Source: Octopus vulgaris (lineage: Eukaryota). From it: 64,000 nt of DNA. Below the pieces are notes generated by a model. The model ran no database searches, was not told the origin of the DNA, and saw only the letters and a program-made list of their open reading frames with translations. The stretch spans positions 46,686,001-46,750,000 of the forward strand of contig OX597836.1 of the NCBI GenBank assembly GCA_951406725.2, read 5' to 3'. Position numbers and translations under genes: made by a program. Of the stretch, positions 5,070-46,265 are shown one piece after another. Position 1 is the first letter of the stretch. Each line of letters begins with the position of its first letter.

Positions 5070-5460
5070 ATTGTAATTTCCAAAAGCAAAATTATATGTC
5101 TTTTAGAAAATCAACATTTAAAGAAGGATATAGCATATCAGTTTAAGGTCATCATTCCAGGGAATTGTACAAATTAGTACATAGGTTCTTCTGATTCAAT
5201 TTAGAAATATAGATTAATAATCTGAGGTATTTTTGCCATCTCAATATGGCAAAAATAAGATTAATAATCATTCTTCATTTAAGTCTAGAAGAAAATGTAA
5301 TTCTACAAACCTTAGTAAATACATTTCAGATTTAAAAGACCGGAACATCAAATATGATATAAAGTGATCCATTATTAGTTTGTACCATCATACGATACTG
5401 GTAATTTTAAATGGGATCTCTACCTTCAGGAAACATAACGATATAATTACTTCTAACTTT
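5070..5460 (+). pseudogene. Penelope-like retroelement GIY-YIG endonuclease remnant
   Basis: Manual translation: CLLENQHLKKDIAYQFKV...N*YIGSSDSI*KYRL, then NNHSSFKSRRKCNSTNLSKYISDLKDRNIKYDIK*SII and PSYDTGNFKWDLYLQE. This fits the PLE C-terminal pattern (YIG...NHxSSF...STxLSKYIWxLK...WSII...PY...CxLCLxEK) with stops and frameshifts. Confidence 0.75.
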
Positions 5461-5892
5461 CCGCTTTGTATGCATTCATCTATTGGAGATATTTTCTTAG
5501 TTCAGTTTGAATTTAACCAATTTCCGATTGCCTTGATAATGTTGTGTTAGCATATATTTTCAGATATATTAGTTAGACTGGTATTTTATTACCTGTATCT
5601 AAATATGCTGGCACAATAGAAACAATCTTCAGTAATGTCGTAATGGTGTAAAGATGTGATTTTTTCCCATTTTTGTTCTTGTTATCATATCCTCTGAATT
5701 TCTTCTCAGTGATATTTGTGTTTACTTGTCATACATGAGAGATTACCTTGGATGGTAATCTACTTGAAACTATTGGTATCTCATTGTTTGATAAAGTCAG
5801 CCAAGTTCACTTAATACTCTGTGCTTTAGAGATATCTGTCTGGATTTATGATCCCTTTTGTCTTTTATCATTTATACATACATATATATTGT

Positions 5893-6215
5893 TGTATTTC
5901 GGAATGGTCATTTTGCCAGTTTAGCCAATAAAAACACACGCACTATATATTTGGTGTTACTTTGCTTCGGCGTTATTTATTTTTTACATTAAACTAAATC
6001 TTATTTCGGTCAGAGTTCTTTCGTCACACTCCTGAGACCGCATCAGTGGTCCTTTGCTTTCTTCTTTCTTATTTGTGTGCCTCTCCTTACTAACCATCAG
6101 CCACTTTGTATTTCTATTGTATGTGTCTTCATTTATTGGCTAAACTGGCAAAATGACCATTCCTAAATACAATATCTGTTTCAACATACGATTTCACATC
6201 AAAAATCTTGCAAAA
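5893..6215. mobile_element. Small fold-back element with about 40-bp inverted arms, PLE-terminus-like
   Basis: TTGTATTTCGGAATGGTCATTTTGCCAGTTTAGCCAATAAA versus TTTATTGGCTAAACTGGCAAAATGACCATTCCTAAATACAA; flanked by (TA)n. Confidence 0.7.
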
Positions 6216-6254
6216 CAAATATATATATATATATATATATATATATATATATCA

Positions 6255-6529
6255 CGGGATCACGTGACCGACCAGTCCATCAGATGTAGTTACACATCGC
6301 TGGTCACAATGCGTTCGCATTGTTTTAGTCTTCGAATGACACCACCCCGCTGGCTAAGCGAGCAGGCCAACAGAAGAAAGAGTGAGAGAAAGTTGTGGCA
6401 AAAGAGTACGGCAGGGTTCGACACCCCTGCCGGAGCCTCGTGGAGCTTTTAGGTATTTCCACTCAATAAACACTCACAACGCCTGGTCTGGGAATTGAAA
6501 CCGCGATCAACTGGGCCATTGCGCCTCCA
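6255..6529 (-). mobile_element. tRNA-derived SINE related to family D
   Basis: 5' half matches the copy at 62185-62568 (GGAGGCGCAATGGCCCAGT...GGTTTCAATTCCCAGACC). Confidence 0.75.
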
Positions 6530-6584
6530 TATATATATATATATATATATATATATATATATATATATATATATATATATATAT

Positions 6585-42154: not shown

Positions 42155-42498
42155 ATCAGAGACCTCCTTCGGTCACGACACAGACCATGGGATTGCACCT
42201 AGAAAGTTACCCTCCTAGACACAAGTCCGGGCGAGGTTGTTTATGGAAGACCAGCAGTCGCCCATGCATACCAGCCTCCCCTCTCCACACCACCAGTGTT
42301 ATCCAAGGGAAAGGCAAAGGGGCCAATACAGCTTAGCACTAGTGACATCGCAACTCATTTCTACAGCTGAGTGAACTGGAGCAACGTGAAATAAAGTGCC
42401 TTGCTCAAGAACACAACACGCAGCCCAGTCCGGGATTCGAGCTCACAACCTCACGATCGTTTGCTCGACGCTCTAACCACTGAGCCATGTGCCTTCAC
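42155..42498 (-). mobile_element. CORE-type tRNA SINE related to family D
   Basis: Minus strand TGGCTCAGTGG...GAGCTCGAATCCC...GTTCTTGAGCAAGGCACTTTATTTCAC. Confidence 0.75.
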
Positions 42499-43787
42499 AT
42501 GTCTCTCTCTATATATAAACGGCAAAATGTCTGCGTGCGTGTCCTTTATACAAATCCACAATTTTTCAGTTAGAGGGCTCGCACTTTCTATGGTCATTCA
42601 AAATCATTGCTGGGTCAAAGTGCTAGTTATATTATTAAAACCCATCACCACCTCAAATTGCTTGCTTTGACTGAAACAAAGCAGACTGACACTCTCACTG
42701 CTTAGAGCTACAATGCCCAAACTGGTTTGAATTTCACGATTTTGGAAATGTCAATTCTGTATTTCAGAAGATCTTCAATTCAATCTAGGCAACATGTGAA
42801 GCATCTAAAACATTAAAAATTCCATAAGTGCAATTTGGGAGACTTCAGCAGCAGTTCAACTTGCCAGGAAAGAACATTGTGATGCTGAACAGGTATACAG
42901 ACCACTTATCTGCTTTTCAAACATGGTGGGTTCTTTCTTCTGCTCTAGCTTTCGTTCTTTTGCCAATTCTACTTTAATAACTGTGTTGTTTTGGAGTAAT
43001 GGAAAATCGCCAGTGTTGTTCCCTTTTTGCCTTGTTAAAAATGGGTGATCCCATATCATCTGTCAACTGCCATCCAGTCAGTCTCATTAGCTGCATCAGC
43101 AAAGTGATGGGCTCCCATATCAGAGAAGCACTCTAAAACTTCTGGAACCCTCACAACTTAGATTTATTCCCAACTCCAACTACTGTGGCTAACACATGGA
43201 GTTTCTAGCAGATATATCTGAATCACTGATGGCAACTCAGGGTGGATGTTCTTTATCTTGACTTTGGCCTTCAATTCTATGCCAAACAGAAGATTTACAA
43301 CAAAACTCTCAGCAATGGGTGTGAGGGATGATCTTTATAACTGGTTGAAGCCTGTCGTTTTCAGTCAAAAACAGGTAGTCACTGCATTCTGCACCCTATG
43401 AGAGGACATCTGGTGTGACAGAGGGATCTGTTCTTGGAACCCTGTCGTTTGTTGCATATATTAATGACATTGATGCCTATTTAAAGAATGATACAATGTT
43501 GAAATATGCAGATGCCATCAAGTTGTAACTTGAGATAAAACAAACAGATCCGATAAGGCTATAAATCTGTCCTGCTTTCCAGACCTGAACACAGTGCAGC
43601 AATGGATTATTGACTGACAACTCAAGCTGGCTGTGGACAAATGCATTACCATACATTTTGGAAGGAAAATTCCAGCTTTTACATACTCTGTCCACAACAC
43701 CAATCTTAAGAATGTGCTAGTGAATGTACCGAAGGTGGCACGCAGTGGAACTGAATCTGGAACCATATGGTCGGAAAGCAAGCTTCT

Positions 43788-44020
43788 TATTTCTTTATTG
43801 CCCACAAGGGGCTAAACACAGAGGGGACAAACAAGTACAGACAAAGGGATTAAGTCGATTACATCAACCCCAGTGCGTAACTGGTACTTAATTTATCGAC
43901 CCAGAAAGGATGAAAGGCAAAGTCGACCTCAGCGGAATTTGAACTCAGAATGTAGCAGCAGACGAAATACCGCAAAGCATTTTGCCCGGCGTGCTAACGT
44001 TTCTGCCAGCTTGCCACCCT
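43788..44020 (-). mobile_element. SINE family B nested in a family-A head
   Basis: Family-B match; AAGCTTCTTA is repeated on both sides. Confidence 0.75.
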
Positions 44021-45820
44021 CTAAGCTTCTTACCACACAGCCACTCCTGCACTTGGTTTCCTTTTCTAGTCAATAATATAGGACAGCTGCTATGTAAAGA
44101 AGAGCTATAAATTGGAGAAGGAAGTTAGGTATGTCTTCTCTGAGAAGACACATATGAAACGGTCCCACATATATCAACAGCTCAGAAAGAATGCATTGTC
44201 AACTGCAATTTGTGTTGGACAGACCACATTTCTAAAACTGACAAGAAGGCTGAGGGTGTCTTGGCATCCCTCAGTATGACCTCAGTATGACCTTTGTCTG
44301 CCATTCTCCAGCTATCTATTTAAAGTTGTATGTGGCTATGAAACATTCACACTTAGATCTTGTATCACCAGTCTTGCAACCCTTATCTTGCTCAAAATGT
44401 CAATTTCCTGTAAACTGTCAAGAAATGTGCAACCAAACAAATACCCACCATCAGGTATTTACCATACCCCGAACAGCTTGCATTCCTGGGCACGGGTACA
44501 TTAAAGTTCCAACATTTAGCAACTGTTTTGGTAGACACCCACAAGATGATCCACCATTTTTCCAGCAACAACCTTGGGCCCCTTTTGAAATTCCATGTCT
44601 AACACATAAGTGGACACGCTAACAAAATCAGAAAGCAGTACCCATGACTTTCAGAAACAATGGGGGTAGTTTATTCCATTGCTGAAGCATGGAATAAACT
44701 ACCCCCATCAGTTGTCAGCTATTGGGACATTACATCCTTCAGAATTGCCATGCTTCCTGAAATTTGCAACAGTACACCTAATGTTCTCCCACCTTTTTGG
44801 GGGGGATTCATTCACTGTTCACTTTCCCATCGTTTCTTGTGCATTATTCTATGCACTATACATGCATTTTTAGCTACTTTTTCTGATGAGTTGAAGTGCA
44901 CCTGAGCACTGAATAACAGAAATTGAACCTATGCCACAGATGTTATTTGCCAAGTGATTAACATCGACTTTATGGTAGTAATTAAAAGAAAGGTGTAAGC
45001 TTTGTAACCATCTGCTGCATTACCTAACCATTTTAAACTTTCTATTTATCTGAAGATCTTCAAATAACAATTCCATTGATTTGGTATTTCCATTTGTGAT
45101 GGAATCTATTACACGTGCAGACACTAACATCTGTTTATTATACACAGAGAATACACCATCCTCTCTGACCGTCTCTTTGTATCTCCGTGAGTAAATATTA
45201 TTTCGCAGTTTTGTCAATGCCACAGCAATCTTCTGTTGTGATACTGGAACATTAAATATGATATTTAATTGTCCTTGCAGACATTTCCATTAATGTTCTT
45301 CCTTGTTACAACTTTCACAAAATACTTTCGGTATTTTCTCAGCTTTCTTCCTTTGTTCCTACATATAATTCCCACACATTTTCACCACTGAATACAGAGC
45401 TATTTAATTCTCCCCCACCTCTCTTTCTCTCCCCTCTCTCTCACAGTGTGTGTGTGTGTATGGGAGAGAGACAATATAAACACACAAACACACTTGGCAC
45501 ACTCACATAGTATGAGTCTATGTTATATTGAACAGCATGTGTTGAAACATTGTAATTTTAAAAATTCAGACTTCAACAATTATATTCGGCTGTCTTTGTT
45601 GTAGTCACAATTCTCTGAAATTCTTCACTTTTTGCTTGTATCAAAACTCCTGATCACCACAGTCCTTTTCAAACACACACACACATTACAAAGACTTACT
45701 GTGGGGGGAAATAAAAATGTAAACACATTCTTTGTACGCTGTTGATATGTGGGGAAAATAAGGAGTTTCCTGATGGACCATTTCAAGTCTGTCTTTTCCT
45801 CAGAAAAAGATATTCTTTTC

Positions 45821-46265
45821 ATTATTTACATTATTTACATTTGATGGATATTTGTCCTCATCTTGTTTGTTGTTAACACAACGTTTCGTCTGATATACCC
45901 TTACAGCCTTCCTCAAGTGTCTTGGGGAAATTTCGAACCTGGGTTCTCATTCCTAAGGTATTTTTAAAAATAATAATAATAATAATAATAATAATGATAA
46001 TAATAATAATAATAACAATAATAACAGTAATAATAATAGTAACAACAACAACAACAACAACAACAACAACAACAACAACAACAACAACAACAACAACGAA
46101 AAATACCTTAGGAATGAGAATCCAGATTCAAAATTTCCCCAAGACACCTGATGAAGGCTGGAGGTTATATCAGCCGAAACGTTGTGTTAACAACAAACAA
46201 GATGAGGACAAATATCCGTCAAATGTAAATAATGTAAATAATTCCTCTTCTCTTAAATACAGAAC
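45821..46265. mobile_element. Fold-back element: inverted arms of about 145 bp flanking an (AAT)n/(AAC)n microsatellite
   Basis: 45821-45965 is the near reverse complement of 46099-46242. Confidence 0.88.
46143..46188 (+). ncRNA. Minimal type I hammerhead ribozyme motif, PLE type
   Basis: Stem I GACAC/GTGTT; CTGATGA plus one extra A; stem II GGCTG/CAGCC; GAAA; palindromic ACGT stem III; GUU triplet. Confidence 0.65.

Follow-up and report, generated by a model that had tools for sequence, protein, structure and literature searches.

Are the short fold-back elements with hammerhead ribozyme motifs in a stretch of the Octopus vulgaris genome mobile units in their own right, or leftovers of larger retroelements? 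The stretch, hereafter the window, comprises 64,000 nucleotides (GenBank assembly GCA_951406725.2, contig OX597836.1, positions 46,686,001 to 46,750,000 of the forward strand), and coordinates are counted from its first letter. A preliminary description, made from the letters alone, named six loci (5893, 6585, 9938, 23131, 39183 and 45821; the 23131 and 39183 copies forming one family) and read them as non-autonomous ribozyme elements mobilised by Penelope-like elements. Our analysis upholds the Penelope-like link and points to a different origin. The fold-backs are probably pairs of short copies of the pseudo-long terminal repeat (pLTR), joined head to head as dead-end products of two priming events at one site. 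The fold-backs and their intact or decayed hammerheads are the following.

5892 to 6226: fold-back; arms 5892-5947 and 6115-6172 (88% identical), tail 6173-6226; ends at (TA)n.
6052 to 6008, minus strand: decayed hammerhead of the 5893 fold-back, in the unique centre and on one strand only, with C at core position 9.
6588 to 6943: tailless fold-back (locus 6585); arms 6588-6748 and 6781-6943 (93%).
6816 to 6903, plus arm: intact type I hammerhead of 6585 with long stem II and palindromic stem III; the minus-arm copy is decayed.
9916 to 10256: old fold-back (locus 9938); arms 9916-10022 and 10157-10256 (78%); ends at (TA)n; possible left tail to about 9880.
23131 to 23352: Hydra-type fold-back in (TA)n; arms 23196-23270 and 23277-23352 (88%); long arm on the minus strand; tail of 64-66 nt.
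39183 to 39433: the other copy of the 23131 family, likewise in (TA)n; arms 39181-39258 and 39285-39366 (88%); long arm on the plus strand.
41589 to 41956: fold-back missed by the preliminary description (locus 41601); 147-bp arms, decayed minimal hammerheads, one-sided tail.
45821 to 46266: fold-back with an (AAT)n(AAC)n centre; arms 45821-45965 and 46099-46242 (93%).
46143 to 46188, right arm: intact minimal hammerhead of 45821 with an ACGU palindrome and an extra A after A9; the left copy is decayed.

Self-comparison of the window and arm alignment recovered inverted arms, 78-93% identical, at all six named loci. At each of these and at 41601 the arms are oriented head to head, with 5' ends inward and 3' ends outward. 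The one-sided tail is clear at four of the six (5893, 23131, 39183 and 45821), probable at 9938 and also present at 41601, but arm alignment gave no tail for 6585. Placement in or beside microsatellites is likewise confirmed at five of the six loci, where the outer end lies within 5 nt of a (TA)5+ run, whereas only 7% of random control positions fall within 15 nt of such a run. At 45821, however, the (AAT)n/(AAC)n run is central, between the arms, and the flanks are not the site, and 41601 is not at a microsatellite at all. The latter locus carries a clear 12-bp target-site duplication (41589-41600 and 41945-41956), a length of at least 12 nt being reached in 21 of 6094 null pairs. A possible 10-bp duplication at 45821 is ambiguous because the adjoining repeat ends in similar letters, and the (TA)n runs make the other five loci unreadable in this respect.

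Pairwise similarity among the five named families never exceeded that of shuffles, in agreement with their description as unrelated. Nevertheless, the tail of 41601 (41601-41944), a missed sixth family, shares 34 of 41 letters with that of 5893, and fold-backs of this kind are therefore not all unrelated. The shared part is an AC-rich tail, 83% conserved between 6180-6220 and 41889-41929, whereas the hammerheads of the two families do not align; it is likely a cis-signal of a non-Hydra lineage. Within the window, 23131/39183 is the only repeated family among those named. That 5893, 6585 and 9938 are each present in many copies follows from contigs of three DNA runs, with tens to more than 100 contigs per position.

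How real are the hammerheads? A strict type I scan returned four hits (6822, 19273 and 46148 on the plus strand, 45803 on the minus strand) versus none in each of 30 block shuffles. We accept those at 6822, 19273 and 46148. The hit at 45803 is likely due to chance: its stem I has no pairs other than A-U and G-U, and the CUGANGA box is absent from the related copies found near 44120 and 46720. In a relaxed scan only two hits scored 13 or more (shuffle mean 0.08), and scores below 12 were no better than those of shuffles, so that decayed motifs need other evidence. Such evidence comes from majority letters, that is, from related copies in contigs of the three DNA runs (40 of the 390 differences being listed). 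Two elements outside the named loci are relevant here:

8500 to 8830: further decayed element, missed by the preliminary description; hammerhead 8602-8670 with one core mismatch, and a 20-bp inverted arm at 8500-8519.
19267 to 19342, plus strand: lone type I hammerhead with 6-bp stem I, palindromic stem III and a weak long stem II.

In the 5893 hammerhead the majority letters at 6035 and 6010 restore a stem II pair and a stem I pair, and the majority letter at 8662, carried by 94-99% of the depth in all three runs, yields a perfect stem III palindrome. In all, majority letters repair three stems. The lone motif at 19267, as first described, is borne out by the strict hit at 19273; arm alignment found no inverted arm there. 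The claim that every family has an intact or decayed core is correct for 6585 and 45821 (intact) and for 5893 and 23131/39183 (damaged), but at 9938 only core fragments, and no complete hammerhead, can be read. The proposal that arm motifs allow cleavage of transcripts in either direction is not supported. Only two of the 12 arms of the named loci contain an intact motif (the right arms of 6585 and 45821), and no locus has both arms intact. The double-hammerhead form is predicted when two copies of 6816-6903 fold together. For the 6585 and 45821 fold-backs taken whole, the pairing probability predicted for stems I and II is 0.00, so that read-through RNA would be a long duplex rather than an active ribozyme; if transcribed, a fold-back locus is predicted to yield long double-stranded RNA. 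Rfam was no help: no hammerhead was matched at E-values up to 10 in 45700-46300 or 23130-23355, nor among the 150 of 427 whole-window matches listed, which comprise only below-threshold microRNA matches driven by microsatellites and hairpins. Minimal hammerhead variants were originally found by descriptor searches, not with Rfam.

A coding remnant and the hammerheads of one family narrow the Penelope-like link.

5076 to 5379, possibly extending to about 5457, plus strand: frameshifted GIY-YIG endonuclease remnant of a Penelope-like element, Hydra-clade type (profile search and tblastn).

A hidden Markov model (HMM) built from four retrieved endonuclease domains of the CxCx5C type matched the window at 5257-5379 (independent E-value 1.1e-7) and, collinearly, at 5076-5213 (7e-4), the next best match having a value of 0.35. 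The tblastn identity of the remnant is 45-54%; its own linker is frameshifted. The GIY-YIG remnant noted at 5070-5460 is therefore real, and can be narrowed to the Hydra-clade type. Searches with the remnant alone were blank (Pfam, none of three frames; homologue search, none of 15 candidates; no representatives), but carry no weight since Pfam names none of four intact Hydra-type proteins. The HMM scan found no reverse transcriptase (RT) remnant in the window. The second line of evidence comes from File S2 of Craig (2021; PMC8557442). Stem I, stem III and the cleavage base of 23131/39183 are those of Hydra-2_aMil, and both copies lie in (TA)n and carry a Hydra-style canonical hammerhead with stems matching rows of that file. 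By sequence, 23131/39183 and the 5070 remnant are of the Hydra-clade type, to which the general Penelope-like attribution is thus narrowed.

These data also bear on the reading of the elements as relics of miniature inverted-repeat transposable elements (MITEs), DNA transposons in which the hammerheads arose by chance. The inverted repeats, the shuffle-like scores of the decayed motifs and the empty Rfam scans of the elements would suit such relics. Strict hits that shuffles do not produce, majority letters that repair three stems, the correspondence to published Hydra hammerheads with its linkage to RT reading frames (see below), and the one-sided tail combined with a 12-bp duplication all speak against them. 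The MITE reading is already contradicted for 23131/39183, 6585 and 45821, and we regard it overall as highly improbable.

To which larger elements, then, do such ends belong? The hammerhead pattern of 23131/39183 retrieved at least 120 metagenome loci. Three of them hold complete open reading frames (ORFs) of 714-724 aa with RT motifs and a CxCx5C-linked GIY-YIG domain, with 413 relatives. Of the 83 arms flanked by 250 nt or more, 14 have endonuclease sequence upstream of the hammerhead (15 rows, one arm occurring twice). Together these observations indicate that hammerheads of this type are end markers of coding elements. A word of 12 nt or more recurs in both flanks of 18 of 64 arms, some of these words lying in microsatellites, versus none of 300 null pairs. 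Fold-backs make up 32 of 105 loci. These loci include the same fold-backs, target-site duplications and full RT-endonuclease ORFs, which makes it likely that the fold-backs are dead ends of insertion by autonomous elements and not units of the retrozyme kind.

The ends of the retrieved arms are informative. The 3' ends of family A are bimodal (50 short, 20 long and two other; n = 72), and among the 27 fold-backs with both ends readable, 23 combine one long with one short arm (p 1.4e-4; 22 of 26, p 2.7e-4, without a known duplicate). The junctions between the arms vary from locus to locus and many contain filler. As for the 5' ends, 55 of 84 arms of families A and D end within 0-9 nt of stem I, eight within the next 30 nt and 21 further out; this count excludes four family-C arms (poor reference) and 21 cut by contig ends. 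Both hammerheads of the 23131 fold-back are damaged, and the arms of 23131 and 39183 start at -5 to -11 relative to stem I. Upstream, six of eight families share TATAWA between -33 and -39, and A is found at -8 in all eight. Two other ideas about these ends were discarded. Hammerhead cleavage as their origin was unsupported by eye, with scattered starts in the partner arms; an extra G at 5' junctions, as from cap copying, occurs in four of 11 arms ending at -8, which is too weak.

A second signal lies in the tail. About 6 nt past the short end, families A, B and D as well as the window copies have a motif consisting of RCUC, an inner stem, a 2-nt bulge and GAGY-ACU, which forms a hairpin:

23170 to 23194, minus strand: tail hairpin (motif 1) of 23131, about 6 nt past the short end.
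39369 to 39393, plus strand: tail hairpin (motif 1) of 39183, in which an A-U pair replaces the G-C of 11 other instances.

The background of a loose version of this pattern is 0.011 per 260 nt. In 14 instances we counted 51 inner pairs, compared with a shuffle mean of 22, and none of 2000 shuffles reached 51. The first inner pair is U-A in nine and C-G in five, and the outer G-C to A-U change of the window copy is compensatory. All three ORF-linked loci have two hairpins, spaced by 65 nt (L015), 64 nt (L056) and 83 nt (L048, across a TA run), and the spacing of 64-65 nt matches tails of 64-68 nt. The second hairpin is present in none of 31 long arms. Among published consensus sequences, read by eye, Hydra-1_Ajap has two copies at its start, Hydra-2_Ajap and Hydra-2_Amil each have one in the tail, and Hydra-1_Crog has a variant copy at either end.

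For the 23131/39183 type we propose the following route. The pLTR promoter would start the transcript about 5-8 nt before stem I. The element protein, likely a dimer, would bind two bulged hairpins about 65 nt apart, and its endonucleases would place a nick in each strand of an AT-rich target, some 12-16 bp apart. Reverse transcription would then start from each nick, about 6 nt upstream of one of the hairpins, so that one 3' end is short and the other long. Where this takes place on the 5' pLTR, synthesis of both cDNAs would end by run-off at the 5' end of the RNA, and the two would be united by a blunt join, through microhomology or with filler. In this process the hammerhead would be a passenger. 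Whether the duplicated hairpin acts as a ruler that seats two subunits on one RNA, each priming one nicked strand about 6 nt upstream, is in our judgement an evenly balanced question. An insert of this kind keeps the hammerhead and hairpin 1, lacks the promoter and hairpin 2, and so could not regenerate the tail; it would likely be dead on arrival. Other families likely took the same two-nick route with other signals. Precedent exists in PAc, a Poseidon element of Anolis (Frangieh et al. 2024; PMC11167929): nicking and extension take place on both strands in vitro, the tail is delimited by two internal RT starts, the protein is a predicted dimer and the hammerhead is dispensable in vitro.

The long-short pairing bears directly on an alternative in which a single cDNA self-primes or switches template at a palindrome near the 5' end, with no second nick-primed cDNA (the Arkhipova 2013 model). 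Imperfect palindromes do occur at several junctions, and the model was put forward in PMC3846280, which favours self-priming. It gives no reason, however, for the second arm to stop at whichever of two fixed sites the first did not use, as it does in 23 of 27 fold-backs; many junctions hold filler rather than palindromes, and nicking and extension of both strands occur in vitro (PMC11167929). We consider self-priming improbable.

Junctions and tails also bear on the reading given by the preliminary description, in which dedicated ribozyme elements derive from a non-coding master, either tandem and retrozyme-like or itself a fold-back, mobilised in trans by a Penelope-like protein. Arms of 5893 and 6585 have very many related copies, and 69 of the 83 arms show no endonuclease sequence upstream. 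The junction sequence is identical in 23131 and 39183. Animal retrozymes are pLTR derivatives (bioRxiv 10.64898/2026.07.22.740005) and pLTR sequences sufficed in trans in Adineta (PMC3846280). Against this, junctions vary widely, and one 9-nt junction recurs in two families (L001 versus L019/L077), so that the junction common to 23131 and 39183 need not be inherited; moreover, the tail is on opposite arms in the two copies. Retrozymes are defined by direct tandems, and the window self-comparison matches listed include no tandem hammerhead array. Hairpin 2 is missing from all 31 long arms, and the RNA of a whole fold-back is predicted to bury the ribozyme. With 14 of 83 arms running into endonuclease sequence and junctions that differ, a self-propagating non-autonomous unit is not supported; we hold a non-coding master to be unlikely, though a better candidate than self-priming.

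Several points weigh against two-nick joining of pLTR copies as the origin of the fold-backs. The search pattern demanded a whole hammerhead, which biases the sample, and the loci are incompletely de-duplicated (L078 and L110 are the same insertion). Two of the 14 hairpin instances were retrieved with the motif inside the search pattern. The ORF link is known from relatives in other organisms, and the mechanism rests on those relatives; no single family among the retrieved loci showed both hairpins and mapped ends. Four of the 27 fold-backs are short-short or long-long. The transcription start about 5-8 nt before stem I is likely, but is deduced from sequence only. The start of the published Hydra-1_Obim lacks a clear hairpin by eye, and the motif is thus not universal. 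The common junction of 23131 and 39183 would also be explained by inheritance from a fold-back master, and stem conservation in related copies implies hammerhead function at some stage. Finally, pLTR-only mobilisation in trans is reported in PMC3846280.

How do the window elements compare with known systems? Members of the Hydra clade (PMC8557442; Hydra-2_Amil, Hydra-1_Obim, Penelope-13_HM) have an RT with RWK and DKT motifs, a C-terminal GIY-YIG domain with a CxCx5C-type linker and without a CCHH motif, (TA)n targets and, at a distance of about 100 nt from the 3' end, a canonical type I hammerhead; the 23131/39183 copies are likewise Hydra-style. They differ in being ORF-less minis and in tail length (64-68 nt versus a published 30-40). 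The same source describes inverted 5'-truncated copies with a one-sided tail, (TA)n target and hammerhead in Penelope-like elements, including an inverted copy with a hammerhead on both strands (Penelope-13_HM). It also lists Hydra-1_Obim of Octopus bimaculoides, with (TA)n target and canonical hammerhead, and hammerheads are reported from a squid genome (PMC6962438). The suggestion that the architecture is uncharacterised in cephalopods therefore does not hold for the (TA)n target and canonical hammerhead; by eye, the family of the 5070 remnant differs from Hydra-1_Obim. PAc resembles the inferred route in its AT-rich target and in needing RNA beyond the copied part, in addition to the features given above, but belongs to another clade, and the text of PMC11167929 searched contained no duplicated cis-motif or 5' run-off model. 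The metazoan minimal hammerheads of Cervera and de la Pena (2014; PMC4209133) share the palindromic or absent stem III, the extra base after A9 and the U3-A8 variant. They occur as dual motifs on opposite strands 100-700 bp apart, with low activity even as dimers. By comparison, the stem II regions of 6585 and 19267 are unusually long (45-57 nt), and cephalopods are not named in the portion of that paper available. Non-LTR retrozymes (bioRxiv 10.64898/2026.07.22.740005) are similarly non-coding, pLTR-derived and 50-1000 bp long with a type I hammerhead, but are head-to-tail tandems with at least two complete hammerheads on one strand, whereas the window elements are head to head with at most one intact.

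Beyond the host sequences, viral contigs yielded no match to the hammerhead pattern and none of 18 candidates for the protein. A looser hammerhead and hairpin pattern applied to viral and prokaryote collections gave 143 loci, of which eight pass a loose box filter and three (L155, L173 and L239) look like true Hydra-type ends, none with hairpin 2. These three are contigs of a bacterial metagenome-assembled genome with a Hydra-type hammerhead, tail hairpin and (TA)n, and are likely animal host DNA binned into that genome. Two ORF-bearing contigs, L056 (2643 nt) and L015 (2613 nt), are of unit length with overlapping ends; L056 starts one base past the predicted cleavage site and may be a cleaved or circular RNA, or this may be an assembly edge. 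At 6781-6815, in the inner 6585 arms upstream of the hammerhead, an 18-nt word is shared with L067 and L076, where it lies just downstream of the Hydra-type hammerhead; its significance is not established.

Two weaker hammerhead candidates lie close to the endonuclease remnant.

5528 to 5636, plus strand: candidate hammerhead of the U3-A8 core variant, with its box at 5533-5539, a 16-bp stem II and a decayed stem III.
5735 to 5785, plus strand: candidate decayed Hydra-type hammerhead, with stems I and II, GAAA and stem III present and the CUGAUGA box absent.

The former was read by eye and by folding in a multi-copy stretch. The latter is weak and read by eye, with a stem III like that of Hydra rows in File S2 of PMC8557442. 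An element at 9396-9760, between two (TA)n runs, has two unrelated, decayed, outward-facing hammerhead-like cores (CUGUUGA at 9521-9515, minus strand; CUGAUGA at 9638, plus strand). Both arms of the 41601 fold-back likewise have U as core base 6, so an A6U core variant may recur.

Other repeats surround the fold-backs. At 45708-46829 an older inverted pair (45708-45797/46736-46829) encloses both the 45821 fold-back and a high-copy repeat of 380 bp (46268-46647); a third copy related to the pair is near 44023-44197. About 380-400 bp long and containing a microsatellite, a high-copy repeat that we take to be SINE-like occurs at 36-793 and about 15 other places (e.g. 11010-11518, 23518-23953 and 37752-38170). 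The perfect, spacerless 83-bp palindrome at 251-416, to which a single copy near 10291-10348 is related, may be a very young inversion or a fold-back created during assembly. At 35707-36744 lies a tandem array of about seven copies of a 145-bp unit, with related dispersed copies near 2132, 3200, 32760 and 53800; the strict scan found no hammerhead in it. A DDE_1 (pogo-like) transposase remnant on the minus strand at 61949-62942 is identified by two Pfam hits (119 of 186 frames scanned).

What does this mean for Penelope-like elements? The fold-back plan is known in print, and the octopus loci are added members of the insertion products of these elements, to be annotated as such rather than as MITEs, precursors of microRNAs or novel ribozyme elements. 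The twin hairpin, which likely marks two copy-start points, is the new lead. Neither it nor the run-off model was found in the open text of the literature searched, on which subscription papers and figures may bear; the main and supplementary text of PMC8557442 accessible to us, figures being outside the search, has no match for hairpin, stem-loop or GAGCAC. The same paper names the origin of tails and inverted copies as an open task, and an in vitro system for Penelope-like insertion exists (PMC11167929). A duplicated, covarying RNA signal at a fixed distance makes that question experimentally tractable, and the hairpin could define a minimal RNA for double-strand, target-primed insertion. 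If true, 5' run-off would explain the masses of fixed-size hammerhead minis, and the ruler would by itself account for how long the tail is, why a fold-back has one long and one short arm and why tandem copies are needed.

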